Source: Verrucomicrobiota bacterium
Lineage (GTDB): Bacteria; Verrucomicrobiota; Verrucomicrobiia; Limisphaerales; AAA164-E04
Assembly (NCBI GenBank): GCA_047947115.1
Contig: CP170459.1
Coordinates: forward strand, 2,075,218 to 2,139,217
DNA length: 64,000 nt
Direction: 5' to 3'
The position numbers were made by a program, and so were the translations under genes. Positions within the stretch are counted from its first letter, which is position 1. Each line of letters opens with the position of its first letter. The notes under the pieces were generated by a model. The model searched no databases and had not been told where the DNA came from. It was given only the letters and a program-made list of their open reading frames with translations. Below, piece after piece: positions 6,955 to 46,847 of this stretch.

Positions 6955-6960
6955 TTCGAA

Positions 6961-23362: not shown

Positions 23363-26300
23363 TTGGTAAGGTTTTGTAAATCATTGGCCAACCAGTTATC
23401 AGTGACACGTTCGTCTTACAGCCTGGAGGCGTTGGAGCCTCGTGTGCTTCTTTCTGGGGATGGGCTTTCTGTTTTATCAGAGAGTCACGCGTCTTCTGGA
23501 GTCGAAGAAGATTTGTTCTGCGCTTCGGAGTCGTGTGAATTGATCCAGAATGAAACACAGGATGAAGTGACCGAATGGTTGATTGACGGAGATCTTGATG
23601 CATTAGATTCTCTGTTCAACCAGGAGGGTACTTCGCAGGAGGACTGTATCTTCGCCGAAGAAAGTGACGCAGCGGGTGAGGCTGCAGTGAGCGGTCCACT
23701 TGAAGATGCTTCAGACGGTGAAACTGAGGAGCAGGGTGATGCTCCAACTTCCGATATTTCCAATTTTATTCCCGCTTCAGATATCCTTTCCGAAACATCG
23801 CTTTTGGTGACGGATCAGCCGGGAGATTTCGATTTATTTTGCTATTGTTCACGTCTGGTTGAGACGTTGAATGTGGGCAATGCCCCCCCTGCTGGTGAAA
23901 CCTGTTTGCCTGGCGAAAGCGCGAGGCACGATTTGCCATACCATGTTGCATCTCAAACGGTCGACCAGGTCTCTGGTTTGTTCGTCTCTTTAACGCCAGA
24001 GCAGGCAGAGTCTGTTCTGGACTTGTCTATGAGTCCGCAAGGTTATGTGGCTCAAGTCGTTGATGCTTATGGTAAGCTTGTGGCCGAGCCGACAGAACTG
24101 TCGGTCGATGCGACGGTTGTCATCACGGGCAGTGACGACCTCGACGATACTCTTACCATCCGATTGCCGGAAGTGCACGCGGATGGATGGCTTGCCATTG
24201 CTTTTGAAGGCGGAGATGCAGGGTTTGATTCATTGGTTCTGGAAGGGCCGGACGGTGTGCTTGTTCAGTACGTTGCTGCAGGTCCTGATTCCGGTTCCAT
24301 TCAAGGTGAAGGGTGGGAGATTCATTACACCGGACTTGAGCCCATTACCGACAACAGTGATGTGGCCGACCGGTTGTTCACCGCGACCGGCTCGGATGAT
24401 ATCATTCGCTTGAAGGACGCCGATGAACCTGGATTCATGACCATTGAAAGTGACAATGGTTCTTTTGAGAGTATCAGCTTTCCTAATCCAACTTCCTCCC
24501 TGACCATCGATGCCGGCGGAGGAAATGACCAGATCATTATTGAAAGTTTGGATCCGGCCTTTGTCGCGGGAGCAAGTGGTTCGGCTGATCCGGAATTGCA
24601 TCTTCAAGGTGGCGCTGGCACGGACACCGTTTTTGTAAGTTATCCGGCGGACCTGATTCTCACCGATGCTTCCTTGGATGGTGGAAGTGATTTCAATTTG
24701 ATTTTTGATGATGTTCCCGATCAAGTCGTGGTTTCGGGCGGAGCGATTGACGCTTCGGCTTTTTCCGGCGTGGCTGTGGTGGTACCGGGTGTGCCGGATT
24801 GGCAGGACGAGGGCCCCGGGCTGATTCATTCGGATCTCACAAAAGATGCTCCTTTCCCTGAATCAGGTGCAGTTGAAGCGATCGCAGTACATCCGGGAAA
24901 CGATCAAATCCTTTTTGCCGCGAGTGTAAACGGTGGCGTTTGGCGGACTGAGAATGGAGGGCAGACCTGGACGGCGATGACCGATGAACTGCCATCACTG
25001 TCCTTTACGTCCATTGCCATACATTCCCATGATGCGGATGGTAACTTGGTGGATGCTTCCACGCCTGTTGGCAAATTGATTGTTTTTGCTGGAACAGGTC
25101 AACGAAGCGCCAATCACGAAGGTGGATTGGCGATCGGTTTGCTGCGTTCTCAGGATGGAGGAGATACCTGGGAATTGGTGGGTGTGCCGGATATGACCGG
25201 TTTGCCGCTCAGCGCCATTGTGGCAAAACGCATTTCCGGGCAGGACATTGTGCTTGTTGCAGCTGAAGGAAAAACGGTCAGAGAATCCAGCAAAGTGGAA
25301 ATGCTTGGTTCACCGGATTTGACCTTCAGCGACCAGGGTGCATCATCGGATACCATCACGCGATCCGCTGGCAGCTGGATAGATGATGGTTTTGCATCCG
25401 GTCACGAGATTGAGGTAGATGGTACCACCCGAAATGATGCGACATACAAGATTGCTTCCGTCACTGCGACCGTAATGACCTTGGAGGCCGACTCAATTCT
25501 GGTGGATGAAGCCAGTGTCAGCGGAGTAAAGGTCATCACTTCCTTGAAGGTCAAGTTGTTGAAAGAGGGAGGTGTTTTTCGTAGTGTGGATGGAGGGGAT
25601 ACATTTACCCAGATTCAGCCCATTGACCCTGCCGCGCAATTTTTCCCTCTGGACGAGCGCCATTTTCCGACCGGATCTGTGACAGATCTGGCCATTGATC
25701 CTGGGGCGGAAGAACGCATCTATGCCGGTGTTCGAGGCGGCGGGGTCTATCGTTCCGATGACGCCGGAGCTACTTGGACCGCCGTGAATACGGGGTTAAC
25801 CCTGGCAACCGATGACTGGGACAATGACGGAAACGGCTATGTCGATGATGCTGATGAAACGGCAGTAGGGGTGCAACGTATCTTATTAGCGGTCCAGGCA
25901 GATGATGCATCGGCGACAAACGAGGTCTATGCTGCATTGGTTGGTGGGAATGATCATTTCATAGGGATATTCAAATCCGACGATCAGGGGGCTAATTGGT
26001 CTTTGCTCGGAGAAGCTCCCGGACGTCCCGAATTTGAATTGAGTTTTCCTGTCACATCGAATGCCGGGCTCATCGACTTCCTCGATAACAATCCCGCTCA
26101 GGATACGGTTGTGCGATCGACTGGCAGTTGGATTCGGGATGGCTTCCAAGCGGGGGATTACATTGAAATAACCGGATCTGCTGCAAGCGATGGGGTTCAT
26201 TTGGTGGCTTCCGTCAGTCATGACACATTGACGATGGATGCGGGTGTTGCCCTGGATACCGAAGTTTATTTGCGCAGTATCAAAGGGGCTCCGGAATTGA

Positions 26301-29300
26301 CCTTTGCCGATGCGAATCCCGATACTATCACGCGTAGCGTGGGGAGCTGGGTTGAGGACGGGATTGTGAAGGGGCATGAGATCAAGATCTCCGATACAAC
26401 GGGCAATAATGGCACCTATACCGTGACCGGAGTCACTCCGCTGGTGTTGACGCTATCTGGTTCGGATTCACTCACAGCAGAGACCATTCAGACCGCAGTA
26501 GAAATCAAAGCAAGTGCCACCGAATACGATGGTCCGGGAACGCTTCAACCTCAGATTCACCGCGGCAGCCAGGGCGAATTGCATTTCTCAGTCACGGCGG
26601 ATGCCGATGGCAATATCTATCTGGGTGGGGACCGGCCTGCCCATATTTTCCGTTGGGATCAAACAACCAGCCAATGGGATCACATCACCAAGCAAAACGC
26701 CACGGGCACACGTTCGCATGCTGACTCAAGAGTCTTGATTCTGGATGGAGCAGGGCAGCTTTTGGATGGGGATGATGGAGGCGTGTATCGTTTACTTAAC
26801 CCTGGTGACAATGCCACGGTGACCATGACGGGATCTCCGCGCGTCACTTTCGTGGATGCCAATCCTGACCAGGTTCAACGCTCTGCCGGAAGCTGGATCA
26901 CGGACGGGTTTGTCGCAGGTCAACGCATTGGTGTGACAGGTAGCTTTTCTTTGTATGGGAATGACGGGGTTTACACGATTGCCTCAGTTACCGCTTCCAC
27001 TCTTACACTGGTTGCATCTGATCAGCTTCAATCCGAAGGCCCCAGATCTGGCGTCACAGTTGTCTCTTATCCCGCTTTGGCCGGCAATCCGAACCTGACT
27101 TTTGCGGATGCCTCGCCGGATACCATCACCCGTTCGGCCGGGAGTTGGGTTTCCGATGGATTTGCTGTCGGACATCACATTGAAGTATCAGGTTCATCGA
27201 GCAACGACGGCATTTATACGATTTCCGAATTGACCGCGACTCTGTTGAAAGTAACGGCAGCCGATAGTCTTGCTGCCGAAGGGCCCGTCAATGGAATCCA
27301 TGTCTGGCAGAATCGTGAGTGGAAGAGTCTGAATGCATCCCTTGGTGCCACGGAGATTCTTTCCATGTCTTACGACCCGGTCAGCAATGTCTTCTTCGCC
27401 GGTACTCAGGATAATGGTGTCATTGAACAGCCTTTTCCGGCTGACGGTGTTGACAATGACGGGGACGGTATCGTAGATGAACCGGATGAACGCTTCAGGT
27501 GGTCTGTTGTGCTGGATGGACGCGGACTTCCGCCGGGCGATGGCAACATCACCGCCGTGGCGTTGTTGGATTTGGATGACGATGGGCAGATTGACGAAGT
27601 GCGTCGCTATACCATGTCCAATAATCTCGTCAGTTTTACCCAGCGCCTTTTTGACGAAAATGGAGCACTGATCCCGGGAACGAATCAACTTGTCGGACTT
27701 GCTTCTCCTGTGTCGCAAACCGTGAACTTCACTGTCAACATCGGCAGCGACCAACTTACCATCAATGATCATGGCTTGGTGACCGGAGACGGACCCTTCA
27801 AAGTGGACGTTTCCGGAGGAGGTAGTCTTCCGGCCGAACTGTCAACAGATGCGCTATATTGGGCCATTCGGGTTTCTGACAACGCCATTCAGTTGGCCGC
27901 CAATCAGCAGGATGCTTTGGATGGAAGCCAGATCAATTTGACCACGGATGGCTCGGGGACACGTCAGTTGACGAAACCTTTCCTTAGCTTTGGCAATGCC
28001 GCCATTGACGATCCCACCGATCAGATAACCATTCCCAATCATGGTCTGGCAACGGGAGCCGGGCCGTTCCGTCTGGTGACCAGTCGGGGTAGTGATTTTG
28101 GAAGTGGCCTTTATCCCTACATAGATTACTACGTCATTCGGGTGGATAACGATACCATTCAACTGGCACGTTCCAAGGCTTTGGCCAATGCGGGAACCGA
28201 TTATTCCATCAAGGACAATGGTTCCGGAGCTTTCCAGCTTGTCTCTCGATTGAGTGGTTTGAACGGCAACGATGCTGCTAAGTACACCAGTGGTTTTCGG
28301 GAGTTGGCATACGCTGTCAATCAAGTGGATGACACCCGAATGTTGCTTGGTTTGAATTCGGTTTATGCCAGCGTGAATATCGGTAGTGACGCGACTCCTT
28401 ATTACGATGGTTTGGGAACGGTGCAGAGATTGTTCACTCATCCAAGCAGCGGTCAGTTCACTTCACTGGTTTACGGAGGTTCCAAGAATGGTGTTGAGAA
28501 TCCCGATGTGGTTTATGCCTCCAGCTGGTCTCGCATTTATATTCAGGTTGCCAATGCCATGACGGGTAACCCCAATCTGGTATTTGCGGACAATGGGGCA
28601 AGCGAAGATACCATTACCAGATCGTCCGGAGATTGGGAGGCGGACGGGTTTGCTCCCGGTCAGGTGATTACCATCAGCGGTTCGTCTAACAACGATCACT
28701 CTTACACTGTTCAAGCCGTGACTCCTACCGTGTTAACGGTGACTTCCGGAGACAGTCTTACTGCCGAAGGGCCCGTGAATCAGGTGGCTGTAAGTCGTTT
28801 CAGCAGGGAAACCACCCCCGGTTCGGAAACAATCAACGGGTTGGTGCTAGATCCTGATGATTACGACATCGCTTATGCCATTTCGGATGCAAACGTGTAT
28901 CAGCGCACTGGACCTGGGAAATGGGAAATCATTTCAACCGAACTATCCAGCTTGTCATTGAAGAGTATTGAATTCGCCCAGGTAGGAGGGACGGACATCC
29001 TGCTGGTTGGCGGTGTGAATGGATTGTTCCGGGCAATCGATCCGCAGCCAGGAGTGACCTGGACGGAAGTGGGGCGCGGCTTGCCCAATACCTTGCTTCG
29101 TGACACAGATTATATCAGTCGCGATCCGGCTGATGCCCCGAATCCACACAACTTGTCCCGCGAAGATATTCTGTTGGTGGCGACTCAAGGTCGCGGTGCA
29201 TGGTTGACATTGTCGCCGGATGTTTATCTGGACGAAATGACTGAAATTCACATTGTGGGCGATGGCGGCAATGATGAGATCAAGATTGAACGTCGTGCAA

Positions 29301-32300
29301 GCAATGCCTCATTGCTGGACATCTACGTCAATAGCAATTCACCTGTTTATACACTACCTGCTAGTGCCGTTTCCAAAATCACCGTGGAAGGTAATGATGG
29401 AAATGATACGCTCACCTTGGACAGCACGCATGGACCGCTTTCTTTCCCGGGGGATGCTTCCGATCCTTCTAATCCCGAAGGGATCTTTTTCAACGGAGGT
29501 GGCGGTACCAATCAATTGGTTCTGGAAGGTGGAAAAAGTCACAGCCTCACCCAGGCGAGCGATGCAGGTGTCACAACTCTGACCATTCAGGATATTCGGG
29601 CAAATCAGCAAGCGATGTTTGCGTTTGAAAATGCCACGCTCGACAACAATCTCGTGCCGGCATCCGATCTGGAAATCTTTTATCATGTGATGACTGAGAT
29701 CTTTTTCGGTTATTCGCATTGGATGGGGTCAAATGATTCGTTGAGTGGTGATGGGATGATGGATGAATTGGCCTTGATTGGTTACTCGCTGCCACGCGTC
29801 TTGAACGGATCTCAAACAAACGATCTTGATCCGGTCGGTGATCCGGTCGAGGAGGCTACTGAAATGGTTCAGAGCGGATCAGTTCGGTCAACTTCGGGAC
29901 TGGAACGCCTGATTGAATCGGGTGAAAACGGATTTAGCCTCTCTGAAATTGGTGACACAATCCTGACCCTTGATGCTTTACGGGCCCGTCTGGATGATCT
30001 GGATGACGTGGCTGGGAATGTTGTGTTGGATGAAATCACCGATCGTGATGGTGACAGTTTGGCTGACGCCATTTTGACCATCCAAATACAGCGCACCTTG
30101 AATGGACAGGCAGCTTTGGAATTGCAGACTGAATACGGGGTAGGCGAGATTGATATCTCAGGGGACATGCATGTATCGGTCGATGTGGTGCTGGACTTGG
30201 TGGTTGGTATTGAGACGACCGATGGGGTTTTCATTGAGACGCTGGGTGGAGCATCCGGCCTTAGTGTAAGTGGACTTGAACTTGAAGGCTCTTTGGAGGG
30301 AACCGGTCGATTGGGCTTCCTGGAGGTCTATCTTGAGGAATCCCGGCTTGTGGTCGATCCCGCATTGACCTTCGGAATCACGCTGTTGGATCCTTCTGGC
30401 GGGGATGAGATTCGTTTTGATGAATTGATGGCGTTGTTATCCGATCCCTCATCCTTGAGCGATCTGGCCGAGTTTGCCATTACGGGATCTGCTTCTGATG
30501 ACCTGGAGTTCAGTGCTGTCGTTCATGCTGCGGCCATTCTTCCCGGATTGGATGATCCATTCGATCTGGGGGATGCGGAGATGACAGCGACATGGAGTGA
30601 GATTACCGATATTGATTCTGTGGCAATCAGCTTCAGCGTGGGGGCTGGTGAGGACTTGATTGGGTTTTTGGAAGTGACCGCGCAACGAGTGGTTGAGGCG
30701 TTGGAAACCGTTCAGAATACCCTTGAACAATTCAGTGTCGATATCCCGGAAATCGATCAAACCCTCGACGATCTCCTGCGGTTTGTGGATGGATTTGAAG
30801 ACACTATTCTTTCTCCACTCCGTGAACCTGTGCATGGATCCGTATCGACAGCGACGATTCAGGATATGATTCGTTCCTGGAACCGCGGATTGAACGAAGA
30901 ACTGGAAACGGTAGGGCTTCACTTCGATGCCGACGAACTTGAGTTGACCTATGATTTCGAATACAGCCATTTCTTCGGTCGCGACGGTGATGCCCTGGAC
31001 CTTTCCTTTGATCTGGGCGGGGCGGGATCGTCCCTTGGTATGGATGCCGAAGTGTCTGTCGAGGGGACGGTGGGATTGCAAACTACTTTGGGTCTCGACC
31101 TGGGGGCTTTGATCGGTGGTGGAGATTTTGATGACATTTTCTTTTTACAGGACACCTTGTTTGAAGGGGAATTGAATCTGAGCTTCACTGAACTGGATAC
31201 GGACCTGACGGCGGGTTCGCAAACATTCAATCTTGAAGATGGTGAGCTGGTGTTGGGAGTGAGCCTGACCATTGATCCATCCGGTGCGGACGATAATGCT
31301 GACAATAAGCTGAGCCTGACTGAATTGACTTCCGCTTCCTTGGAAGATCTGGTTGATCTGGACGCTACAGGTACACTGGATGCAACGCTTCCTTTCAATG
31401 CCGATCTGAGCCTTGATTTGTTGAACGGAGCCGGGCTGGCGACGGAAGGGGATTATGTCATTACCTTGCATACGGATGATTTGTTCGGATCGGATCCCAT
31501 GGACGTGACGGTCAGTCTGGATGGCAGTGTGACGGTGTTGGGACAGACGCTTGAGGGGCTCTTTACTTTCCAATCCACCACCATGGAAGGCGAATCGGTT
31601 ACTATTCTTTCGGGTGATCCGTTTACGCTGACTTTGTTTGAAGGCGCAGGGGGTGGTACCGCCCTGGTCTCTGCAATGGGTAGCGGTCACTTCGTGGTAA
31701 CCGACGACGGAGTGGCAGGCGAAGCCGAGGCTGCCCTTGTGGTTGGAGTGGCCGGTTTTGCCAACCTGACAGGTGATTTTGAGGTTAGGGTCAATACCAC
31801 CGAATCAGACTTCGATGCTACCTTTACGGTGGGGGGCGATTCGGTGACACTGGATCTGCCTGAAGGCCCTTACCTGCGCGTTGCGGGCGAGGATGTGAGT
31901 GTCGACTTGAGCATCGGTTCCTTCACCCAAACCGTCAGCGGCGATTTTGCTTTCGAACAAACGGGCGATGGCGATAACCGGCAAGTGGTCCTCGGGTTGA
32001 ACAACGTTTCCATGACCATGGAAGCCGGCGCTTTGACCCTGGAAGCAAATGATGGTTCAGGCGCGTTCCTGCTTCAGTCAGCAGGTGTGGCAGGTGAGGC
32101 GACGATCGGAGAAGTCATTTTGAACGGCGTTCCTGGTGTTACTTTGAATGTGGTGGATCTGGCCATTCGCGTGAACAACACCGGTATGGACATCAACGAC
32201 GGTGAAGCCGAACCCGGCCCGCTTACCATCGAGGTCGGCGGGGAAACCCTTTCGTTTGAATTCAGCGGTGCTTACGAGCAGGATTATCTTTCCGTTTCAG

Positions 32301-35300
32301 GTGGCGCCGAAATGGTGTTGGCGGATTTCATCACTCTGTACGGAAACTTCACCATTGAGCGATCCGAACTGGATACCAATGCCGACACGATTGTGGAGGA
32401 CGTAATCAAGGTGGGGGTTGAATCCTTGAACTTCACTTTGAGCGCCGGTTCATTTGAAGTGTTGTCCTTCTCTGATGGAACGGGCGCTTTTGTCTTCACC
32501 GATGAGGGCGTGGCAGGAACGGCTGACATGCAGTTCGAGCTGGGAATCATCGGTCTCAGTGGCGACATTGACATGGAATTGAACACACTGAGCCGCGCGA
32601 TTGAAGCCTCGGTGCCGGTGGCCTCTGGCGCGGTTGCATTTAACTTCACTGATACCGAGTTCCTTCGGGTATGTGTCACCAACGCATTTCTCAATCTTGG
32701 CTCCACTTCGATTCCGATCCCGGGTGATTTGTTGGTCGATGTTGACACGGGCAGCGGTTCGGTCGATGTCGTGGACAAGACCAGTGGCACGGTGCTGGTT
32801 TCGGTTGCTTCGGATGGTACGATTTCCACAGGGCTTTCCTTTGACGACTTTGCGATTTCCGGTCCGTTTGAATTCATCAGTTTGCTCCGGCAATTGCTGA
32901 TCTGGTTCAATGAAATGAGCGAATCGGAAGCGTTCAATGTCGAGATTCCATTCACCGATAACACGCTTGGGGAGGCGCTGGACTGGACGCAGTTGTTCCT
33001 GGATGAAATTTACTCCAACATGATCAGCGTCGAGTTGCAGTCCGGTGAGGATATTGACGGCATGATCGCGGATGAAGGGGATGGCATTGTGGATCTGGTT
33101 GATGTGAATTTCATGTTGCAGGTCGATGACGAAACACCGGTCGAAGTCACCGTCAACGGTTCGTTCAGTTCGATTGAAAACGCCAGTGATCCTTTCGATG
33201 CATCAACCTTGGTTGGTCTTTTCAACAACGCTTTCCTCGCTGCTGGTGCGGGGCTTTCCTCACAAGTGGTCGCCCGCAAACATGAAGAAACCGAGCCGGG
33301 TGTCGATCGATTTGTGATTGCCTTGCTGCCGGAAGCCATTGCCAAGTTGTCCTCCTTGAAGCTGGTGGAACTGGACGAGGATATGGAAGGGTTGGGCTTT
33401 GGTCCGAGTGACGGTAATTACGGGGATGAGGACGGTAGCGAAGCCAATCCATATACAACCGAGCAGACCGCCATCGAGACACATCGCTACACCACCGAAC
33501 AATTCTTTGTCGCGTTGGGCGATCTGCTGGGGATACCCGTTACTTACAATCCGGCCCAGTTGGTTTACACCTATACCGTCGATAAGGAAGCGACCTATGA
33601 GACGACGGTTCCGTTCAACTTCAGCGGGGACTTGGGCGACCTCGGCGGAGTGGCCGTGGAAGGGTTGGTCCGGATTGAAGCGACTGTTGGGTTTGAGTTT
33701 ACTTTGGGCTTTGACCTGGGCGCCGACGAAGTTCCAAGGATTCTCACATCGACCTTTGTGCCGACTCCAGCGAACGGCCGGATCAGTGAAGACGCCAACT
33801 TTGACATCTTCTTCAATGATGATCTTGCAGCCGTCAGTTTCTCTGGCGCCAATGCCCTGACCGCCGCTTCCACTGCTGATAATACCAGTATCAATGATTT
33901 GGCGGATGATCTGAATGACCTGTTTGCCACGGTAGATTACAACGGGTCTCCGGTCAGTGACTGGTTGGTGGCGCAGAAGGCCGGCAACGGTCTGGCCATT
34001 TCGGTGCGTCAGGAACATCTGGGAGTGATCAATCGACTGAGCACCCGTTCAAATATCGATGATACGTTCGCCACCGAGATGGGATTCGGAATCGAAGTGC
34101 TCGATCTGGACGGCAATGAAGTGACCGAGAATGATCGCTACTTTGTTTCCACATCGCAATCGGGAATGAAGGGGTTGTTTCTGGACGATGTTTCCCTTTC
34201 GGCCTCTCTGGCGGCCTACACTGAGACCGACACAGGAACTTATCCGGATGCCAATCCCGATGGGTTGACGGGAAGTCTGCAATTTGGTTTTGTCGAATTG
34301 TCCACGAGTGAGGGTGCCTTCGGAACCTTGGAATATGATGGAACCACACCGACCGAAATCGGGATTGATCTGGGATTGGAAAACAGTGGCAGCGGTGAAA
34401 GCCGGTTTTATCTCGCGGATTTGTTCCAGTCCCTGACGTCCACATCATTTGGTGACATGGTCAACGGACCGGATTTCTCGGGCAGCTTCCTGGCACGATT
34501 GCAGGGATTAAGCGTGAATGGATTCGATATCGGAGACCTGGCTGGAAGTGACCCTGAAATCTCCGTTTGGATCCCTGATATCAATGATCTCGAATACAAC
34601 GAAGACCCCTATGATGGCACCAACACCGGTGTGTTTGTGACATACCCAAATTTGGGACACTTGCAGAACTTCCAAAACTTCAGTTTCGCTCAATTGATCA
34701 ATGCGCTTCGGGTATTGGTCGACAACCTGAGCGAATTGAGTGCGTTTGGATTCCTGGACAAGAAGATTCCGGTGATTGATGCCAGCGTGAATGATCTGCT
34801 GGATTATGCTGCGAAGTTCGCCGAGTTGGTGGAAGAAGCAGCGAATCAACCTGCCGGGTCATTGCAGGCAGCGATCACCGAACTGGAATCCCAGATCGAA
34901 TCCCTGTTCAATCTTGATCCCAGCATCCTGACCGTTTCCATTGATACCAATGGAATCACTCCAGACCAACTGGTATTGAGCGGGGGAGATGGCTCGAATC
35001 CGGCTGGCACCACTCTGGATCCAGAAGGCGACAACAATGGACTTGTCATTGAGAGCGCATCCAACGGCACGGGGGATAACGGCATCTCGATACGTCTAGT
35101 TGGTGATTCAAGCGTGAGTGGAAATGATGCCAATGTAGAGTGGGACAGTGTGCAGCGAGTCCTCACACTAGGTATCCGGGGCGGAGAGACGACCGCTGCA
35201 ACGTTGCGTGATGCCATCAATGCGCTGTCGGGAACGCCCTTTTTTGCCTCTTTGCCGGGCGGTGAGGATGGTAGCGGGACATTGAGGACAACCGCATTGA

Positions 35301-38300
35301 AATTCGGGTTCGACTTTACCGCTGCCTATGGCAACCTCCTACCGCTGCAATTGGATCTCAATGCGTTGGTGAATCAATTGGCAGGCGACAGCGGTGCTGC
35401 AGCTTTCCTCGATGCAGCCACCACGCTGATCCAGGTCGAAGGATCCGGGTCATTGGAAGTCAGCGCGAGTGCTTCGTTGATTTTGGATTTTGGAATTGAT
35501 GTGACCAATCCCACATCACCCGAGGTGTTCTTCTATGACACCACCGGAATTTCGCTTCTGGCTAAGGTGCTTGGACGCGATATTTCCATTGAGACCTCGC
35601 TTGGTTCCGTGATTGGGATCTATATTGAAGACGGGGAAGTGACCATTGATCAGGATGGTGATCCGGATACTGATGCGGGCGACGACGATCGAGGTGTTGA
35701 GTTCGGCCTGACGCTGAACGACACGAATGGTGATTCCAGGATTTATTTCTCCGAAAACTGGTTCACCACCGACATCATTGACATTTCCCTGAATGGCGGA
35801 CTGAGCGTATCCCTGCCAATCTTTGCTCCGGTGGAAGGATTGCCGCTGGGCGGGACAGGGGATCAGAACGAGGACGGACATCCGGACAACGAGTTGTATA
35901 TTGAAATCTCCGATTTTGCCGGACTGTTTTCCGGGGAGGATGTGGTCACCATCATTGCCCCGGATCTGAACAACCTGATTCAAAATGTTGATTTCTGTGC
36001 TGTTTTAGAAAATGCGGGTTTGCTGATCAATGGACTGGATCAACTGCTCGGTTCGATCGAAGAAGGGCTGCAGGATCTGGTGGCATCCAATTCACTTCCA
36101 ATGCTTGGGGATGGTTTCAGTGATGCTGCGAACTTTATCTCGAGTTTCCGAAATGGTTTGCTCGCGTCCATACAAGCCGAGTTGGATGCGGCAGGCGGCA
36201 GCGCAGTGACCGTTGTTGAAAACGCGCTCAAGCAAGCTTTCTGGGAAACGCTGGGACCGGAAGGGTTGGATTTGTTGGTAGACCCTGATTCGGGTGAAGC
36301 GCTGGATCCATCACTGGGTTATCATCAGCTCGCCGTGATGCTGGACTGTGAAGCAGGGTTGGTGGTTGATCTGCGATTGCGCAAGACCGTCGCCTTGGTG
36401 GACACCAGCGAGAATCCGATTGATTTTGACATTGGCGTGCCCGGATTCGGGTTGGAAGTGAATGGAAATGTCAGTGTCGCCATTGGATTTGATCTCAAGT
36501 TCGGCTTCGGGTTGAACAAGGAGGACGGTTTCTATTTCGATTCCTCGGCAGGTGCGGATGATCCCGAGCTGCGAGTCTTCTTCGAGGCCAGCATTCCCGG
36601 TTTGTCGGCGACGGGGAGTTTGGCATTCCTGCAACTGGACGTCGGAGATGATCCGGATGATCCGAGTTCGTTTGTCGGTCAGTTTGTTGTGGATCTGAAA
36701 GATCCCAATCACGACGGAAAACTGACATTTGCCGAGATGAGTTCGAGCGGGGTGCAGTTCTCGGACATATTTGATCCGGGACTCGAAGCCGTGGCGGATG
36801 TGAATCTGGACCTGTCGGCCAGTTTTGGTGGCAATGCGGCCTTCCCGCGCGTGGTGGCGGAGTTTCATCTGGATTGGTTGTGGGATCTGGAAGAAGGGAT
36901 GCAGAGCCCTGAGATCGTGCTTTCGGACATCGCGCTGGATCTGGGGACCTTTATTTCCGATTTCCTGGAACCTATACTGAATGAGATCCGCAAGGTCACC
37001 GAACCACTGGATCCCATCATCGAAATCGCCACGGCCCGCTTGCCGGTGCTTTCCGATCTGGCTGGTCAGACCGTGACTTTGCTGGACTTGGCTGAACTGT
37101 ATGGTGTGCTGGAACCATCGACCGTTCGCTTCATTGAAACGGCTCTCAAAGTGGTCGACATTATCAATAACCTGCCGACAGGGAATGGCAGTGTGTTGAT
37201 TCCGTTTGGTTCTTTCCGGTTGGGCGAAGATGAAAATGGGAATCGCAACCAGATTCAGACACTCGATGCACTTGGTTCCACCGACTTTGCCGGAATGGTG
37301 AACAATGCCGCTGCCACCGATACGAGCGCGACCTATATGAATCAGGTGTCCGGGTTTGCCAGTGATGTTGACAGCCTGGATAATTTCAGCATCCCGATCT
37401 TCAAGAATCCTGCCGAGTTGTTCAACCTTTTCATAGGCGAACCGGTACGTCTCATCGAGTGGCGCATGCCGACCTTTGAGTTCAATTTTACATACACACA
37501 GAAAATAGCGATTTACCCGCCGCTTTACGCACACTTTGGAGGTTCCATTGGAGCGACCATCGACATCGGTTTCGGTTATGACACCTTTGGCATACAGAAA
37601 TACATTGCCGCCGAAGACAAGAATGTCCTGGATCTGTTCGATGGATTCTATGTTCTCGATTTCGATGAAAACGGAAACGAACAACCCGAACTTGAATTGC
37701 GGGGCGAGATCTTTGCTGGGGCTTCCATTGACCTGCTCGTTGCGGAAGCGGGAGTGACGGGTGGTATCTATGCTTTGATTCAATTTGACCTCAATGATGT
37801 CAACGATGACGGGAAGGTGCGCATTAGTGAAATCGTTGCCAACGCCCAGATCGATCCACGTTGCATTTTTGATATTCACGGAGAAATGGGATTGTTCCTG
37901 GAGGCCTTCCTGAGTGTGGACCTGTTTTTCTTCAGCATCGATAAGACCTGGCGCTTTGCGGAGATCACCCTGTTTGAGTTTGACATCACCTGTCCCGAAC
38001 CCGTGTTGGCATCGAAGGATGGTTCCGGGGTGTTGACTCTGCACATGGGAAGTGATGCGGAAGATCGTGAAGAAATCGATACCAGCGACTCCGCCGAAAC
38101 GTTCATCGTGACACATCTGGATGGCGATGAACTCAGTGAAACGGTGGAAGTGCAGTGGGGTAATTACAAGCAGACCTATGAAGAAGTCACAAAAATCCTG
38201 GTCGTCAACGCTGGGGCCGGAAATGACTTGATCGATCTGCGCGGCGTCTTGGTGCCCGCCGAAGTCCATGGAGGCGTTGGTAATGACACGATCTACCTCA

Positions 38301-41300
38301 GTGACGGCATGGGCGCCGTTGTTTATGGCGATGAAGGCAACGACACCATCGTGGCCAGTTCCGCCGCTTCGGCCACGGGCGTGACTCTTTACGGTGGTGA
38401 TGGCAACGATGTATTCACGCCGGGAACGGTTTCCATCACGATCTACGGCGATGGAGGAGCCGATATAATTCCGGGTAGTCCCGAGGGAGACTTCCTGTAT
38501 GGCGGAGCCGGGGAAGATACCATTCTGGGCGCAGGTGGGGATGACTATCTGGAAGGTGGCGATGGCAAGGATACTCTTGAAGGATCGGCGGGTAGTGACC
38601 TGCTCTATGGCGGTCTCGGCACCGACGTGCTTCGAGGAGGCCGTGATGATGATCTGCTGGACGGTGGGGAAGATGAGGATGTGCTCTATGGAGGTAGCGG
38701 TAATGATCTGTTGATCGGTGGAGAGGATGCGGACAAAGCCTACGGACATGGCGGTATCGATCTTTTGATCGGGGATAATGTGGCCACCATTTTTGGAGCC
38801 GCTCCATCTCGGGATACTCTTCCTTTGCTTGCTGACATTCCAACTTCCGGACTTCAAGTGACCGGTCTGACCGGTTTGGGTAATGATTTCCTGATCGGCG
38901 GCGGCAATGTGGATGTGCTCTTTGGTGGTGACGGGGATGATTTCCTTTACGGTGGCAACATGTTCGCCAATGGGGAAACCGAGATCATTGAGGAAGATCA
39001 CAATGATTTCTTCGATGGCGGCGCCGGGGATGATGTGATCTTTGGCGACGATGCAATGGGACGCACGGGAGATCGTGACACAGGCATCGAGATCCGGGGG
39101 GCTGTCTGGTATGACAACAACAAGAATGATGTCTGGGATGATGAAGAAGTCGGGTTTGGATCGATTACGGTCGAGCTTCGCAAACAAAGTGATGACAGTT
39201 TGATCGCAACCGAAGTAAGTGGTTCCGATGGTTCGTTTGTGTTCAAGGGGCTGGATCCCAATAATTACTACCTCGTTGCCAGCAAGCCTGCCGACCTGGA
39301 TTATCTGGTGTCAGATCCTGCTCATGACGGAGAGGCATCGTACGTTGATAGCGATTTCATTGATGCTGCCGGCCGCACGGCCACGTTTGCGTTGGATTAC
39401 GATGAGGTGGAAACATCCATTGCGATTGGTTATGTGGGCGATCCGCTGCTGTCCATTGGGGATATCTCAGTAGAGGAAGGGGATTCGGGTGTCATCAATG
39501 CCACCTTCACCATCACTCTTTCAGGTCCTCAGCTTTATGTCGCTACCGTGGATTATGAAACAGTGGATACAACGACAACAGCCAAAGAGGCTGACGGAGA
39601 CTTTGAGTTCACGAGTGGCACATTGGAATTCGCTCCGGGTGAGACTTCGCTTCAGGTGGTAGTGCCTGTTTTGGGTGATCTCACGTATGAGGATCACGAG
39701 CAGTTCGTTCTCCAATTGAGCAATCCAAGCGCAGGTATCGTCCTGCCTGCAGTACCGAGCGCCACGGCGACGATTGTCAACAACGATCCCATACCTCAGA
39801 TTTCCATCAGTGATTTCAACCCCATTCCAATCGATTACGAAGACGCAGATGAAACGCGTCCGATTTACGATGAAGATCAGGATGCCGAGTTCATCATTTC
39901 GCTGAGCAATCCGTCCCATAACACGATCGAGGTCTCCTGGACCACCGATGTGGCGATCACCTCAAGGGGCTTGGCGGTGAATGACGCAGCCACACCTTTC
40001 GGTTTGCCGGATGGTGATTTCATTCCCGCAAGTGGAACCGTGATCTTTGAACCGGGAGAAACGCGCCAGACCATAACCGTGGAGGTGCTGGATGACGATG
40101 GATACGATACGGACGGTGATCCTGCCACGGTTGTGCTGGACGAAGCGGCAGAAACTTTCCACGTCAACCTGTCTAATGCCAAGTTTGCCTTCATCAGCGA
40201 TGATCGCGGTGTGGGGATCATTGAAGACGATGACGATCCGGTCAGTGTTTCCATTGCGCCCAACTCGCCCTACGATCCTGATGGCGCCGGTCCCATGACT
40301 CCATTGCCTTTCGAGACGCATGTTGTCGAAGGGAACTCCGGATCACAGTATGTTGAGTTTGAAGTGACCTTGTCGGAACGTAGTTCACTGCCCGTGACGG
40401 TCCAATACAGCACCTCACCCGGAACGGCGGTAGGTTCGGTCTATAGTAAACAGAGCAAGGCGATCAAAGACCTGCCTGACTATGAGCCTACGCCGCAGGA
40501 AGACAAGACGGATCACGAACTGGAGCTTTTGTTTGCGCCAGGCGAAGTTTCGAAGACTTTCACCGTGGAAGTCTACGGAGATAATCGCATCGAATCCGAT
40601 GAAGATTTCTTCGTTAATTTGTTGAGCGCCCATAACGCAGATATCGCCACGGATCCGACAACTGAGAATAATCATGTGACGGTGGTGATCGAAAATGATG
40701 ACAGCATGGTCAGCGTGGACTACGGTCCATACAGCATCTGGTTCAGCGATCAGATGTATGTGGTGGATGAACCGGACGCCGGATCGGAGGATGCTGAGAT
40801 CACCGTTATCAGGGCAGACGGCAGCTCCTATGCCATCGCTGTTTTGACGGCTTTCGATATTTCGGCCACCTCGGGAGCAGATTATGATCCTGTCTTTCGA
40901 ACCCTGCTGGTATTTGAGCCCGGTGAAAATTCCAAGACCGTATTGATCCCGGTTCATGCCGATGATCTGAGTGAAGGGGATGAGGAAGTCTTGTTGTTGT
41001 TGCAGGATCCCACCGGAGACGTGGTGAACGGTGAACCCTATGCGTCTACATTGGTGATCAGGGATGGCGACACACCTCAGCTTTCCATCGAACCGCCCGT
41101 CTTTGCATCCTTGCCTTGGGGAATAGATATTCCTGGCATCAAGGAAAACGGTGTGCCTCCCCATGAATTTACCGTCAAACTGAGCGCCGACGCGCCTCCA
41201 GGCGGAGTCACCGTTTATTATGAAACAGTGGCTATCTCGGCACGTGAAGGCACGGACTTTATCGCGGACTCCGGTTGGATCGTGATTCCGGAAGGTCAGG

Positions 41301-44300
41301 ATGAATTCCCTCTGGAAGTCGTGATTGTGGATGATGCGATTGCGGAACCCAATGAACGATTTGCCGTACGTTTGAGTCAGGCAAGTGGGGCCGATCTTGC
41401 GGTCGAAGATAGTGTCGCTGTAGCTATCATCTTTGATGACGATGGGATTGAGGTGTCAGGTGTGGTTTTCTATGATGCCAATGCCAACGGCTTCCAGGAC
41501 TACAATGAACGGGGGATCAACGATGTCGATGTGACGATCAGCTGGTATGAAGACGGCGCCGAACAGACCGCTACGGTGCAGACCCAGACAGTGGGCGGCG
41601 TGCAGGGTGTCTTCACCCGCGATGTGTTCCTGGGGCAAGTTGCCATTGCTGTGGATGGCACTTCGGTGACTTCTCCTTACAAGGGATTTGGTATTCTCGG
41701 GTCAGGCAGCTATGAAACCACCACCGATAATGAGAGTCAGGCGGTGGAGTTCCTCGGGGCGGAAGGTATCTCTCCATTCGAACCGGTCGGTTATGATACG
41801 TCATCCCGGTTTGATACGCCTGTCGAGACCGATGATGTGGGCAGAGGCGGTACGGATGATACCATCTTCGGAGGTCCCGGTGATGACACTATTGATGCCG
41901 GAGCTGGGGATGATCACGTTGTGGGCGGGCATTGGATGACCGCTACCGATGGGAATGCCGCCGTGAATCTGGGTGATTATGACGCAGATCTGTTGGTGGT
42001 GACAGATCCTGCCGGTGATCCGGACACCTTGCACAACGTCTACGATGAAGGTCCCATCTTTGAAATCGACCTTGGCAGTCTGCCCGCAGGAGGGTCGATC
42101 TCCGGTCAGATCTGGGAAGATGTGAATGATTCCGATACCCAGGATGGTGCGGATAATCTGTTTGCTGAGGAAGTGATCGTGCATCTTTTCGATGACCTGG
42201 GCAATGCGGTGAATTCCATGGTGACGACCGATGGCGAATATACGTTTGATTATCTTGCCTTGAAGGAAGGTGGCGATCCGAGCGGTTATATCGTGGCCTT
42301 CGAATTACCGCAGGGATGGACTTTTGTCGTTCCTGAAATAGGTGGCGACGATACGGCCGACAGCGATGTGCTGGCGGGCAACCGCACCTTGGTGGTGGAT
42401 ATCAGTGAGGGATTGCCGGACGTGGCGAATGTGGATGCCGGGGTGAAGCCTTCGGATGCCATTCCTGCTTCCAACAGTGGTGGATTTGAATTCGGTGAAG
42501 TGGCTTACACGGTTGGGCAGGAGGAAGGTTTTGTCACCATCGAAGTGGTGCGTGGCAATTCGACGAAACAAGCCGCGGTGATTTATCGGACTCACGATGG
42601 TTCAGCGGAAGCAGGAACGCATTACGACTCGGTGACCGGGATTCTGGTGTTCGAAGTGGGCGAGACCTATCGTTCCTTCGATGTGCCCGTGCATGATACC
42701 GGGTTGGGAATCAGTGAAACCGTTGAGTTCGCTCTCACACTCCATGAACCCACCGGTCGGCCATTGGATGAAACACTCGTCTATATTTATGGCGATGGCC
42801 AGGGAACCTTGACCGATGACGATACGATTCAAGGCGGAGACGATTGGGATATTATCCTTGGCGATTCAGGTGCCATACCTGCCGAAGTGGTCATGGCCGA
42901 TCCAGCCTCGCTTCTTACCATTATTACCAGGGGTGGTCCGGGTAAGGATAACATTGATGGCGGCAATGGCCCCGATTACATCGATAGTCAACTGGACGAT
43001 GACCTGGTCGCCGGCTCTGAAGGTCAGGATGTCGTTTATGCCGGTCTGGGTGACGATGAGGTGTGGGCCGAGCTGGACGATGACGATCTGAATGGGCAGC
43101 ATGGTGAGGACACCATTGTTTCCGTGCGCGATGTAGTTCGAATCGAACTTTCTCCTGACTTCCTGGTGCATTATGGCAATTCGGAAGGAACCGGTCCGGC
43201 ATTGAGCACGTTTACCTTGAATGACAGCTTCGAGATTGCCCGCCTCTCGGCAGGTGCGACCGACAATGTCTTTGTCTTCACCGATTGGGAAGGTTCGGTG
43301 TTTGTCGATGCTTCCGGAGGTGAGGACAGTTTGCATGTCACATTCGATTCCGACATGACTTTGACGGATGTGGTTCTGGCCTATCCCTGGAATGCTATTT
43401 TCAATCAGATGCACGGCTTCTTTAAGGATGGAGCCATCAGTTTGCCTGATGATCAAACGTACCATCTGGGTTCTGTCGAGAACGTGAAACTCACCGGTGG
43501 CGCGAGCGCGAATCACCTGGATGCATCCGGCTATTCGCGTAAAGCCATTCTGGAAGGAGCTGGTGGTGATGACGTGCTGGAGGGTGGTTCCAATGATGAT
43601 GTTTTCGTGTTTGACGCCGATGATCCGCTTGGTGTGGATACCGTGATGGGTAACGGGGGGACGGATTGGTTGGATTTCTCATCCACCAGCGCTTCGGTCA
43701 CAGTGGACCTTTCAGTTCTGTTGGTGGATCAAAGCGTGAATGGTAATCTGAACCTTATCCTGGATGACGAGATCGAAGCGGTCATCGGTGGGGAGAATGA
43801 TGACGAATTGATCGGTAATTTCCTGGATAATATTTTACTCGGAGGTCCGGGTGACGATATTCTGGCAGGTGGATTGGGTGATGAAACCTACGCGTTCGAT
43901 ACCGATGAAGCATGGGGCAATGAAACCATCATTGAAAATGCCGGGGAAGGTCACGACGTGATCGATTTCTCCGACACCTCCACCCTGAACGTTGTCTTCG
44001 ATCTCAGCAATACGGCAGCACAGGCGGTCAATGCGAATCTCACGCTCTCGGTTCAAGACTCAGGAGGTGGTGTGGGTGAAATCGAAGGGATCATTGGGGG
44101 TGATCTGGATGACGTCCTGTCCGGAAATAATGAGGACAACACCCTGGTGGGAGGTCCCGGTGTGGATACGTTGAATGGAGCCGGTGGGGATGATGTGCTG
44201 GATGGTGGAACCGGCAATGACGTGTTATCCGGGGGTGAGGGAACGGACACCATTCACGAATCCGAGGACACTCATTTCTATTTGAGCGATTCGATCCTGA

Positions 44301-46744
44301 TGCGTGCCACGGGTGAGATTGATGCTTTGGACGGTATTGAAGTGGCTCATCTGGAAGGTGGTCCCAATCGGTCTAATACCTTTGATCTCACGGGATGGAG
44401 CGGTTCCGGAAGCGTGCATGGTATGGATGACACCGATCCATCCAGTCTGCCACCTGCCTATCCCGACCGCTTGATCATGAGCGCCGATGCTGATTTTGTG
44501 CTGACCGATACGGACCTGACCATCACCGATGGCAGTGGATCGCGGGTGATTGAATTGACGGATATCGGAACCGTGACGCTCATTGGCGGTCCCAGCGGCA
44601 ACGTTATGGATGCTTCGGCTTTCACTGGGAATGTGACCCTCATGGGTGCCGGGGGCGATGATGTGTTGATCGGCGGTGAAGGGGCCGATGTTCTTCAGGG
44701 GGATGAAGGTAATGATACCTTGTCTGGTGGTCGTGGTTCAGATCGGCTTGATGGCGGTGAAGGTCAGGATGCCGTTGTGGAAGATCTGGGCGGTCTGCCA
44801 GGTGAATACCGGGTGTCGCTTTCGGATCAGTTGCTGGGGGTTGACGAGACAAGTTCGGTGACACTTCCTGATTTGCCCTTGAGCGAGTCAGATCTCATGA
44901 CCTCTGTTGAGAGTGTGGAAATCACCGGAAGCCCGCAATCGGATCAATTTGATATTACGGAATGGACCTTGGGTGAACTTACATTGGATGGCGCCGGTGG
45001 AAATGACACGATATTGGCTAACGGTTATGATCGAGTATTTGACGATGAGAGTGGAGAAGTAATTGAAGCTGGTGACGACATGATAGTGTTGACCGATACC
45101 GAATTGACGCGGACAGCGCGATCCGGTGTGTCGATGACCTCCATGGAATCGGCAATCCTGTTTGGCTTGGGTGGTGAAGATGTGTTTGACGCTTCGGGGT
45201 TCACCGGGCGTGTGTTGTTGGTGGGGGGATCGGAATCCGATCAGTTTATTCCCGGTCAAGGTGTTTCCATCCTCGCTGGCGATGATCCGACCGATGCCGA
45301 TGTGCGTTCGGGGGATGACCGATTTGTGTTCCTGGAGGATGGCACTGGTGATTCGGTCGTGGTTCAGGGTGGCGATGGGGAAGATACGCTGGATTTTTCC
45401 GCATTCACCAGCGGCGTCTCTGTTGACCTTTCAATGTTGGGCGTCCTTCAGGTGGTCTTGGCCGGTGAGATGAGCCTGCGGATACAGTTGGATGATTTGG
45501 AGACCGTGATCGGCGGTTCGGGAAATGATGTCCTGATCGGAAATGACAGGGTTAATCGATTCACCGGCGGGGCCGGAGATGATTTGATCAATGGTGCGGG
45601 CAATGTGGATTACATCATCGAAGAGGCCGATACGGATTTTGTGCTTACCGATGCGAGTCTGCAGATCGGTGGAGATACTGATGTTCTGCTGAATATCGAA
45701 TTTGCAGAACTGAGAGGGGGCGCAGGGGCAAATGTCATCGATGCCTCTGCCTTCACCGGTAATACGGAACTAAGTGGCGAAGGCGGTTCCGATATCCTGT
45801 TGGGCGGAAGTGGAGCGGATCTCATGGAAGGCGGGGCCGGAGATGATACCCTGATGGGCGGAAACGGTGGAGATTTCTATGTGTTCGATGTGGATGAAGT
45901 CCTTGGAAGCGATACAGTGAATGACGCTGGCGCGACCGGAACCGATTGGTTTGATTTCCGTGACACCGAGGAAGAGTCAATAAACCTGAATCTGGAGGTG
46001 GGCACACACGTGGTGCACGCTTCTCACCTCACTTTGACCCTCCAGGCTGGTACAGTGATTGAAGCTGTGTTTGACGGGAAGCAGGATGATGTGTTGATTG
46101 GTAATGGAGCGGACAATATCTTTGGCGTAGGAGAAGGTAACAATCTGATAGACGGTGCCGGAGGCACTTCCAATCAAGTGGTCGTCTTGCGTGATGTTGA
46201 CCAAACCCTGCAGGATGACAGTCTTGAGATCGGGGATGCCATAAATGTCCTGAGTGGTATCCAGACGGCATTGTTGGCGGGTGGCGCATCCGCAAATGTC
46301 TTGAATGCTTCCGGTTTTACTTTGGGGCCGGTCAGTTTGTATGGATTGGGTGGAACGGATGTGCTGTGGGGAGGTTCCGGAAACGACGAACTATATGGAG
46401 GGCCAGGGAATGACCTTTTGATGGGCGAGGCGGGGGATGATTTGTTGGTGGGTGGTCTAGGAGACGACGTGCTGGATGGCGGTGGTTATGATCCATCGGG
46501 CGTTGGGACAGACGATGACACGCTTCGCGGAGAACAGGGGAACGATACTTATTTCTTTGATGCTTCACTTCAATTGGGAACCGATACAGTTTTCGAACTG
46601 CCTGGTCAGGGATATGCCGATCTTTTATACGGAGCCGGGTTGAGTGGCGTGGACCTGGATCTCTTTGATCATACCCCTCAAACCATGAGTGATCACCTCA
46701 CGCTGATACTTGTGATTCCCGGCACGGTGGAGGATGCTTATTAA
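23363..46744 (+). CDS. giant (7,793-aa) acidic surface/secreted repeat protein: LEPR-XLL-type N-terminus, BNR/sortilin-like blades, novel repeats, RTX, SdrD-B-like and Calx-beta domains
   Basis: Single uninterrupted ORF with TGA at 23357-23359 directly upstream. LEPRVLLS at 23432-23455. BNR-type strings [50 protein letters not shown]. RTX nonapeptides ([38 protein letters not shown]...). Calx-beta strings (e.g. [46 protein letters not shown]). Confidence 0.9.
   Translation: [7793 protein letters not shown]
25307..28797 (+). repeat. protein-level repeat region inside the giant gene: six copies of a ~75-aa unit plus two copies of an ~80-aa HGL-TG unit
   Basis: Unit consensus, read by eye: (G)xP(D/N)LTFxDxxPDTITRSxGSWxxDGFxxGxxIxVxGxxxNDGxYTIxxVTxxxLTLxxxDSLxAEGP. 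Copies at about 25307-25540, 26069-26283, 26284-26512, 26831-27066, 27083-27306 and 28564-28797. The HGL units ([16 protein letters not shown]...; [16 protein letters not shown]...) lie at about 27727-28230. Confidence 0.75.
38205..39060 (+). repeat. RTX (hemolysin-type Ca-binding) nonapeptide block within the giant gene
   Basis: Continuous GGxGxDxL/I/Y-type repeats: [13 protein letters not shown]...YGGDGNDVF...[74 protein letters not shown]. Confidence 0.85.
39445..41445 (+). other. array of five Calx-beta-like domains within the giant gene (a sixth lies at about 42470-42800), flanked by SdrD-B-like domains
   Basis: Each unit has the ...V.Y.T.dgTA..g.DY....G.l.F.pGe....i.v.i.dD...E..E.F.v.L pattern, e.g. 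[13 protein letters not shown]...[32 protein letters not shown]. SdrD-B-like: [28 protein letters not shown]..., [27 protein letters not shown]..., [30 protein letters not shown]. Confidence 0.8.
42820..46600 (+). repeat. C-terminal ~1,250-aa series of RTX-type modules in the giant gene
   Basis: Recurring composite modules: (D)xDFVLTDxxLxI...IExxxLxGGxxxNxxDASxFTGxVxLxGxGGxDxLxGGxGxDxL and Y/[38 protein letters not shown], each seen five or six times. Confidence 0.8.
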
Positions 46745-46834
46745 TGAAGAGGAAAGATAACAACGATCAATCAAGGTTTGCCGTCTTTCAAACAACAGAA
46801 ACATCGGTTCTGAGGCGATATTCGCATCGAACTC

Positions 46835-46840: not shown

Positions 46841-46847
46841 TCGAATT

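Follow-up and report, generated by a model that had tools for sequence, protein, structure and literature searches.

Giant genes are a recurrent feature of planctomycetes: genes of more than 5 kb are present in 29 of 29 genomes, and genes of more than 20 kb in 15 of the 29 (Kohn et al.; PMC5177795). More generally, the phyla of the Planctomycetes-Verrucomicrobia-Chlamydiae (PVC) superphylum are enriched in proteins of more than 5,000 amino acids (aa; PMC11573180). A motif of the form RRLxxExLExRxLLA was proposed as an export signal by Studholme et al. (2004, as cited in PMC8567305). In Tuwongella immobilis, this motif is found on 52 proteins, 20 of which were detected by mass spectrometry, eight of them only in the SDS-soluble envelope fraction; it is also carried by eight of the ten longest proteins (4,016-10,566 aa), often in combination with Calx-beta domains (PMC8567305). 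A Vibrio protein of ~8,000 aa has the LEPR-XLL motif together with RTX repeats, in the same layout as the protein described here (PMC10868602), and the export of RTX adhesins begins at the C-terminus, the N-terminus being the end that holds them (bioRxiv 10.1101/2025.09.30.679566). Here we analyze a 64,000-nt stretch of contig CP170459.1 from a Verrucomicrobiota bacterium (the window, to whose positions all coordinates refer). A gene on its forward strand (23363..46744) encodes a giant protein of 7,793 aa, which we regard with good confidence as an exported, calcium-folding LEPR-XLL megaprotein; its likely role is that of a surface fibre that functions as an adhesin or in the matrix. The initial annotation of the window had called proteins of this size rare in bacteria, which does not hold for the PVC superphylum (PMC5177795, PMC11573180). 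Taken on its own, the gene adds one more giant surface protein of a PVC bacterium, and its size contributes little to its interest.

The LEPRVLLS motif noted in the initial annotation is present, and turned out to be a curated signature, NF012209 (LEPR-XLL, "LEPR-8K"), which is related to the planctomycete motif. The hallmark of the family is a basic N-terminus followed by an xFExLEPRxLLS motif. The model, whose curated cutoff is 17 bits, gave 24.8 bits for aa 1-4000 and 29.9 bits for the first 80 aa. The signature lies at the extreme N-terminus of a very large protein (aa 20-36 of 7,793), preceded by a short segment (aa 1-19) with three basic residues. All ten N-termini tested passed the model, the nine relatives with 19.9-36.5 bits. 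Judged by its sequence, the giant protein is a member of this already catalogued family. The motif and a preceding Arg/Lys-rich stretch were also found in relatives from Burkholderiales, Pseudomonadales, Nitrospina, Anaerolineales, Fibrobacter, Isosphaeraceae, Pirellulales and Acetobacteraceae.

Two of the relatives are colinear with most of the giant protein: P0019 (7,868 aa) with aa 1439-7793 at 46-50% identity and P0020 (6,191 aa) with aa 2830-7793 at 42-49% identity. The head, as we call the first ~1,400 aa, varies among relatives; throughout the subfamily, P0019 and P0020 included, the C-terminal ~70 aa can be aligned right up to the final residue. Verrucomicrobial relatives of 5,400-6,400 aa have an N-terminus of the type xFELEALEPRxLLSAD, most of them end in ...LTL...VExSF-COOH, and they are poor in cysteine (typically 6-9 in ~6,000 aa). 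For the conserved module described below, the orthologue and nearly all of the ~30 relatives that rank after it are labelled as Verrucomicrobiota/Limisphaerales; among them are cultured Limisphaera strains, whose relatives measure ~6,150 aa.

The initial annotation described the gene as a single uninterrupted open reading frame (ORF), and this was borne out. The frame starts with TTG, ends with TAA and contains no internal stop, compared with 311 and 550 stops in the other forward frames and 94, 262 and 314 in the reverse frames over the same 23.4 kb. An in-frame TGA is located at 23357 and stops are present in all three frames upstream, so the N-terminus cannot be longer; the only alternative starts are TTG 23384 and GTG 23402, and ATG is absent from the first 200 codons. 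Relative synonymous codon usage correlates with that of neighboring genes (r = 0.88). Scans for promoters and terminators at the gene ends gave results at chance level. In the reverse frame that has only 94 stops in 23 kb, an antisense ORF of 958 aa (window 36311-39187, minus strand) is embedded in the giant gene, most likely as a shadow ORF arising from the codon and amino-acid bias of that gene.

The worry that the frame might be an assembly artefact was answered by three public contigs from other samples. The first (L079; JGI Ga0255770_10001784) is 88-93% identical at the nucleotide level to window 13473-29361 and shares the upstream efflux operon of the resistance-nodulation-division (RND) type, the sulfatase gene and the stop/TTG context in front of the giant gene; its first 2,000 codons (aa 1-2000) are open, with a dN/dS ratio (omega) of 0.15. 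The second (L001; GCA_018667275.1, protein P0017) has an open frame over aa ~1960-3430 with 73-74% aa identity, at saturated synonymous sites (pS 0.81 versus pN 0.17). The third (L005; contig CAYPZD010000043.1 of a Verrucomicrobiota metagenome-assembled genome) is 89.5% identical at the nucleotide level to window 31940-47942. All 4,934 of its 4,934 codons over aa 2860-7793 are open, the products align without a gap at 95.2% aa identity, and dS is 0.49, dN 0.024 and omega 0.049. Jointly, the three contigs span the entire giant gene with all frames open. The three open-framed independent assemblies, together with the low dN/dS, therefore show that the giant gene is genuinely coding and that strong purifying selection acts on it from end to end. 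It is hardly credible that the ORF results from chimeric assembly or repeat collapse, or is a pseudogene in decay, and does not encode one functional protein: the TTG start codon and the lack of an evident Shine-Dalgarno sequence before it could be taken in this sense, but the frame open over its full length in three independent assemblies, the omega values of 0.05-0.15, the absence of long DNA repeats and the existence of full-length colinear homologues already largely refute it. Repeat collapse in particular is unlikely because internal protein repeats are at most ~60% identical, the longest direct DNA repeat family in the gene is 38 nt with imperfect copies, and Tandem Repeats Finder detected no tandem repeats in it.

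The giant protein has a molecular mass of 818.9 kDa and a pI of 4.05, with 1,356 Asp and Glu versus 273 Lys and Arg residues. Pfam and NCBIfam scans combined with motif mapping confirmed the domain order put forward in the initial annotation and left the core unmatched (Table 1). At the N-terminus, a hydrophobic h-region of the Sec type is absent: the Kyte-Doolittle maximum is 1.41 (12-residue windows, first 60 aa), as against 1.9-3.1 for the signal peptides of secreted neighbors in the same window, which indicates that this end is not a Sec signal peptide. Only 12 of the 7,793 residues are cysteines, seven of them within the first 181 aa (C5 and six in aa 37-218). All seven are kept in the L079 orthologue and absent from the Verrucomicrobial relatives. 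The Cys-containing acidic leader recognized in the initial annotation is accordingly present, but by this comparison it is lineage-specific and not a family trait.

The all-beta domain that follows is common to other LEPR-XLL proteins (36-52% identity). Its AlphaFold2 (AF2) model (pLDDT 75, pTM 0.76) shows many short strands, and the model of aa 200-480 had no fold match in the PDB. Of the BNR/sortilin-like blades with inserted repeats that had been proposed for the next region, the repeats were mapped as six copies of ~80 aa (aa 645-726, 895-973, 970-1050, 1152-1235, 1236-1316 and 1730-1812), and the Pfam scores straddle their cutoffs depending on piece length: PF15902 and PF02012 reached 34.5 and 27.8 bits (cutoffs 33 and 27) on a 901-aa piece and 28.8 and 21.0 bits on a 4,000-aa piece. 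Homologues of aa 480-890 carry PF15902. Over aa ~1000-4950, the Pfam and NCBIfam scans gave no match at all. Within this span, the first part of the acidic core contains divergent internal repeats at aa ~2600-3100, is 74% identical to P0017 and is colinear with P0019 and P0020.

The C-terminal third is occupied by domains of extracellular type, of which Calx-beta and SdrD_B both exceed their gathering scores: PF03160 (Calx-beta) with 210.7 bits in six copies, the first five at aa 5360-5476, 5503-5615, 5649-5780, 5794-5903 and 5924-6027, and PF17210 (SdrD_B) with 107.7 bits in three stretches. PF00353 (RTX) reached 219.5 bits in 12 stretches, the last canonical nonapeptide being located at aa 7697. 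The RTX modules of the C-terminal array are 31-50% identical to each other and weakly match Peptidase_M10_C; as originally proposed, they run almost to the end of the chain and leave the 55-aa tail, a candidate C-terminal secretion or capping signal. In a PDB sequence profile search the RTX regions matched the beta-rolls of solved substrates of type I secretion systems (T1SS). This RTX and Calx-beta content supports calcium-dependent extracellular folding, as had been suggested.

The core also holds the conserved module that defines the family, ~925 aa in length (aa 3975-4900). An exhaustive HMMER search with aa 3701-4900 returned 2,416 representative protein clusters at E<=1e-3 and 921 at E<=1e-30, so that the family comprises at least 2,416 clusters; word-indexed homologue searches, with 1-16 matches, badly under-counted it. 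The view of the core as lacking any recognizable domain thus holds for the Pfam and NCBIfam libraries but not for the core as such. The module was nearly entirely covered in 111 of the 150 best matches and is found in proteins of 1,600-7,900 aa, where an RTX block follows it directly. No other part of the giant protein is as constrained: over aa 4360-4859, omega is 0.007 and aa identity 99% relative to the L005 orthologue. No Pfam-A, NCBIfam or PDB entry matched it, and the matches in the PDB sequence profile search fell on the RTX parts of the alignment only. The AF2 model of the module (pLDDT 72.6, pTM 0.43) contains three segments of long beta-hairpins, the hairpins being of 15-24 residues, with two helical bundles between the segments. 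Foldseek found no significant match to it in the PDB (best E 1.3e-3, TM-score <= 0.18); the top match was the BcsC barrel (E 1.3e-3, TM-score <= 0.14), followed by weak matches to other outer-membrane barrels and to gasdermin, perforin and pleurotolysin pores. These barrel and pore matches are a hint at most.

The same features bring the RTX and MARTX toxins (HlyA, CyaA, RtxA) into consideration. Like these, the giant protein has RTX blocks that match the CyaA and HlyA beta-rolls and, immediately preceding the first of these blocks, a large conserved region. The protein could then be a membrane-inserting RTX toxin or a MARTX-type delivery device, in which the module hairpins would insert into a target membrane or into the producer's outer membrane and the rest would serve targeting. 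The smallest members of the family (~1,600 aa, consisting of an N-terminal region, the module and RTX repeats) are laid out like RTX toxins, and the position of the module, its modelled hairpins and helical bundles and the exclusively barrel- or pore-type nature of its weak Foldseek matches fit such a function. We nevertheless consider a toxin improbable: none of the fold matches is significant, the module is strongly acidic and without a hydrophobic helical pore domain, effector domains are lacking, and the RTX family hemolysin model NF033943 scored 191.5 bits, over the RTX repeats only, far below its full-length cutoff of 1000. Moreover, no acyltransferase gene is found in the 64-kb window, and the hosts are free-living environmental bacteria. 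Present in thousands of giants from many phyla and nearly frozen by selection in the protein studied here, the module merits a family model and a structure.

For the export of the giant protein we tentatively favor a T1SS-type route, C-terminus first, with machinery encoded elsewhere and a LEPR-XLL end that would serve as a handle in retention or processing, a reading that we place a little short of an even chance. The giant chain would be kept unfolded in the low-calcium cytoplasm and would be exported in one step through a trans-envelope conduit, consisting of a periplasmic adaptor and an outer-membrane channel encoded elsewhere in the genome. Most likely, the C-terminus would lead, as in type I substrates, by way of the conserved tail after the last RTX module. 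Once outside, the RTX beta-rolls and Calx-beta domains would fold on binding calcium and thereby make export irreversible; the LEPR-XLL segment and the acidic linker would exit last and could provide a handle for retention or processing at the envelope. The end product would be a long surface fibre, ligand-binding or matrix-building, with the ~925-aa module as its functional core. In support of C-first export, only 55-90 aa lie between the RTX repeats and the C-terminus, the tail is conserved through its last residue and shows an acidic residue followed by hydrophobic ones, the protein combines its low pI with few cysteines and no Sec signal, its RTX regions resemble the beta-rolls of T1SS substrates, and the family is also present in Proteobacteria.

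Several observations weigh against this route. The 55-aa tail has no match among the curated T1SS C-terminal models or in NCBIfam; C-terminal signals of T1SS substrates are poorly conserved in sequence. A retention module was not matched by NCBIfam or Pfam on aa 1-4000. In agreement with the initial annotation, which had found no T1SS-type pair of an ATP-binding cassette (ABC) exporter and a membrane fusion protein, the 64-kb window contains neither an ABC exporter nor a T1SS-type adaptor: no ORF combines a Walker A motif with an ABC signature, and the sole adaptor and TolC-family genes belong to a CusCBA-like heavy-metal RND operon. A T1SS gene pair was also missing from the visible flanks of ~100 related loci (mostly <2 kb), where the ten largest ORFs, considered as T1SS candidates, turned out to be unrelated enzymes, except for SecA-like and PqqD proteins in L077. 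LEPR-type motifs are moreover found on non-RTX proteins, one of them with a C-terminal OmpA domain, and are treated in the literature as an N-terminal export signal (PMC8567305). In the OmpA-type protein, P0001 (1,331 aa), a LEPR-XLL N-terminus is combined with an OmpA-like peptidoglycan-binding domain at the C-terminus, an architecture that is hard to reconcile with C-first type I secretion of LEPR-XLL proteins generally. Finally, the sole export-related genes that recur beside family members are of a different kind. The comparative context points to a different accessory gene set.

This gene set emerged from the flanks of related loci. Contigs of relatives were recovered with a 200-aa alignment of eight sequences; a 26-sequence alignment of the module was too divergent for patterns, and an earlier contig scan with an alignment of aa 2151-3350 had recovered no relative. 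In 12 related loci, some of four accessory genes (Table 1) adjoin the giant gene: L041 (Burkholderiales), L045 (Nitrospina), L075 (Acetobacteraceae), L076 (Fibrobacter), L077 (Isosphaeraceae) and the seven metagenome contigs L082, L086, L090, L094, L113, L115 and L123. The order giant, DUF3467, GAF-HlyD, PqqD-HExxH is seen in L075, L094 and L113, the order HlyD, PqqD-HExxH, SecA-like, giant in L077, and the order SecA-like, giant in L041 and L082. The PqqD-like domain, a RiPP recognition element (RRE), is of the leader-peptide-binding type, and the PqqD-HExxH core scored 149-160 bits with the daptide protease model NF041824 (cutoff 300) and showed weak M50 similarity. The LEPR-XLL motif was found in all seven accessory loci in which the giant N-terminus is visible. 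No NCBIfam model names these proteins as a system, and in the paper library searched no article joins DUF3467, SecA and PqqD or links them to LEPR-XLL.

Such neighborhoods suggest that export might depend on the LEPR-XLL leader and be carried out by a dedicated, previously undescribed system, with RTX and Calx-beta domains serving for folding outside the cell only. The leader would be bound by the PqqD-like RRE domain of the HExxH protease and then removed, the truncated SecA paralogue would power translocation, and the HlyD adaptors and the DUF3467 protein would complete the trans-envelope route; for the protein of the window, the accessory genes would sit elsewhere in the genome. We consider this possible but rather unlikely. 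The recurring orders in 12 loci with at least one of the four genes, the motif in every visible N-terminus there and its position at the extreme N-terminus after a basic stretch, as in signal and leader peptides, all speak in its favor. So do the proposal of a related motif as an export signal, in the form cited in PMC8567305, and the lack of a T1SS pair in the same sample of loci. On the other hand, the 64-kb window has none of the four genes, nor do the closest Verrucomicrobial relatives in their short flanks, adjacency is limited to ~10% of the loci with any flank, and the function of each component is deduced from domain names only. The C-termini of the cluster-linked giants also differ from that of the window protein, with the last RTX motif 200-1,000 aa before the end, and these giants may therefore form a separate subclass. 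In the window protein the RTX modules are concentrated towards the C-terminus, which suits C-first better than N-first export.

C-first export through a T1SS-type conduit and leader-dependent export share an unfolded substrate, a conduit with an HlyD-type adaptor and calcium-driven folding outside the cell. A bolder proposal, unlikely as a whole, is that the LEPR-XLL giants, including the one described here, are the cargo of an undescribed export and processing system of SecA paralogue, RRE protease, GAF-HlyD adaptor and DUF3467 protein, and that the ~925-aa module is a new fold with the core function. Because the recurrent neighbor genes name specific candidates for the machinery that recognizes, cuts and exports these proteins, the function of the LEPR-XLL/Planc_extracel motif becomes testable.

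Table 1. Features of the giant protein and its gene in the window, and accessory genes beside giant genes of related loci.
Feature	Residues (aa)	Coordinates	Strand	Basis or description
LEPR-XLL N-terminal motif, SLEALEPRVLLSGDG	20-36	23420..23470	+	NF012209, 24.8 and 29.9 bits
Acidic leader/linker of low-complexity character, six Cys	37-218	23471..24016	+	Composition
All-beta N-terminal domain, motifs GGxAGFDSL and YxGLEPITD	~219-430	24017..24652	+	Homologues
BNR/Sortilin-Vps10-like region	~480-2060	24800..29542	+	PF15902, PF02012 near threshold
Acidic core, first part	~2061-3974	29543..35284	+	Without library match
Conserved ~925-aa module	3975-4900	35285..38062	+	HMMER clusters, omega, AF2
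First RTX nonapeptide block	~4970-5230	38270..39052	+	PF00353, 9 stretches in piece
SdrD B-like domain	5245-5358	39095..39436	+	PF17210
Five Calx-beta domains		39440..41443	+	PF03160; boundaries by jackhmmer
SdrD B-like domain	~6245-6360	42095..42442	+	PF17210, 43.2 bits
Sixth Calx-beta domain	6379-6474	42497..42784	+	PF03160, jackhmmer
C-terminal array of ~190-aa RTX-containing modules	~6520-7738	42920..46576	+	PF00353
Conserved 55-aa C-terminal tail ending ...LTLILVIPGTVEDAY		46577..46741	+	Family alignment
Accessory set, positions in related loci		L077:1-4690; L075:12081-14729; L094:19621-22306; L113:17429-21218		
Accessory gene 1				DUF3467 protein, ~100 aa
Accessory gene 2				Adaptor with GAF domain and HlyD-family region, ~615 aa
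Accessory gene 3				Polytopic protein, ~724 aa: PqqD-like (RRE) N-terminal domain, HExxH intramembrane metalloprotease core, weak HlyD_3
Accessory gene 4				Truncated SecA paralogue, 653 aa; 573 bits versus SecA cutoff 814

The genes around the giant gene include PSCyt1/PSCyt2/PSD1, DUF1501 and sulfatase genes, the CusCBA-like RND operon, a sigma factor gene of the extracytoplasmic function (ECF) type and other large surface-protein genes. The PSCyt, PSD1, DUF1501 and sulfatase genes at first sight suggest a planctomycete host, a reading that we reject because the orthologue and the nearest relatives are Verrucomicrobiota/Limisphaerales; most likely, the host is a Limisphaerales-like verrucomicrobium. 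Downstream, the stretch 46848-51659 (+) encodes a protein of 1,603 aa that has LTD, Laminin_G_3, IgGFc_binding and HYR domains as well as a classical signal peptide; its gene begins 103 nt past the giant stop, with the start kept at the same position in L005, and co-transcription of the two genes is possible. An exact look-up of this protein gave no entry. The gene of the ECF-type sigma factor (51879-52718, +; Sigma70_r2 only) has the large surface-protein genes on one side and the PSCyt/DUF1501 pair on the other. Upstream, the RND efflux operon (13502-20899, -) is syntenic in L079; two heavy-metal-binding domains (HMBD) and DUF3347 are present in its adaptor. The window edge (17-2869, +) encodes a CotH kinase-like protein of 950 aa that has chitobiase C-terminal, Fn3-associated and lamin-tail domains, followed by a fragment of an ISL3-family transposase (3270-3791, +; 173 aa, C-terminal part of the profile only). 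Two adjacent ORFs of 381 and 588 aa (6961-8106 and 8099-9865, both -) have no Pfam match; the latter overlaps a PQQ beta-propeller ORF on the opposite strand (9500-10921), so that one of the pair could be a spurious call. In almost all 2-kb bins the GC skew is positive, and the cumulative skew climbs steadily, which fits a single replichore without an origin or terminus in the window.

Compared with the RTX adhesins secreted by T1SS (LapA, MpIBP, FrhA, SiiE), the giant protein shows the same megadalton size, acidity, scarcity of cysteine and lack of a Sec signal peptide. It also has a special N-terminus followed by a flexible linker, calcium-dependent domains, and a C-terminal RTX beta-roll with a short tail behind it. 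In contrast to these adhesins, it has no retention module and no array of near-identical immunoglobulin (Ig)-like extenders (Tandem Repeats Finder detected no tandem repeats and the Pfam scans no BIg families), and hence lacks two of their defining features (bioRxiv 10.1101/2025.09.30.679566). Its repeated units outside the RTX regions are limited to the six divergent Calx-beta domains, the three SdrD_B domains and the six ~80-aa repeats. T1SS or LapG/LapD-type genes are not adjacent to its gene, and ~3,900 aa of it are non-Ig sequence, part of which is a large conserved module that those adhesins lack.

The Planc_extracel giants (PF07595) of Rhodopirellula baltica and Tuwongella immobilis have the same type of N-terminal motif on their longest proteins and frequent Calx-beta domains. 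They differ in that the host here belongs to the Verrucomicrobiota and not to the Planctomycetota, and in that the LEPR-XLL family reaches Proteobacteria, Fibrobacter, Nitrospina and Anaerolineales. The PF07595 model did not match the giant protein even at E<=10; on three relatives it scored 12-14 bits over the same residues, below its gathering score of 25.5 bits. With respect to the LEPR-XLL family itself, the NF012209 model covers a 24-residue signature only, and the giant protein goes beyond it with a Cys-rich acidic leader that is specific to its lineage and with a BNR/sortilin-like head. What it shares with this family is a motif above cutoff at the extreme N-terminus after a basic stretch, a length of ~8,000 aa and RTX repeats toward the C-terminus.

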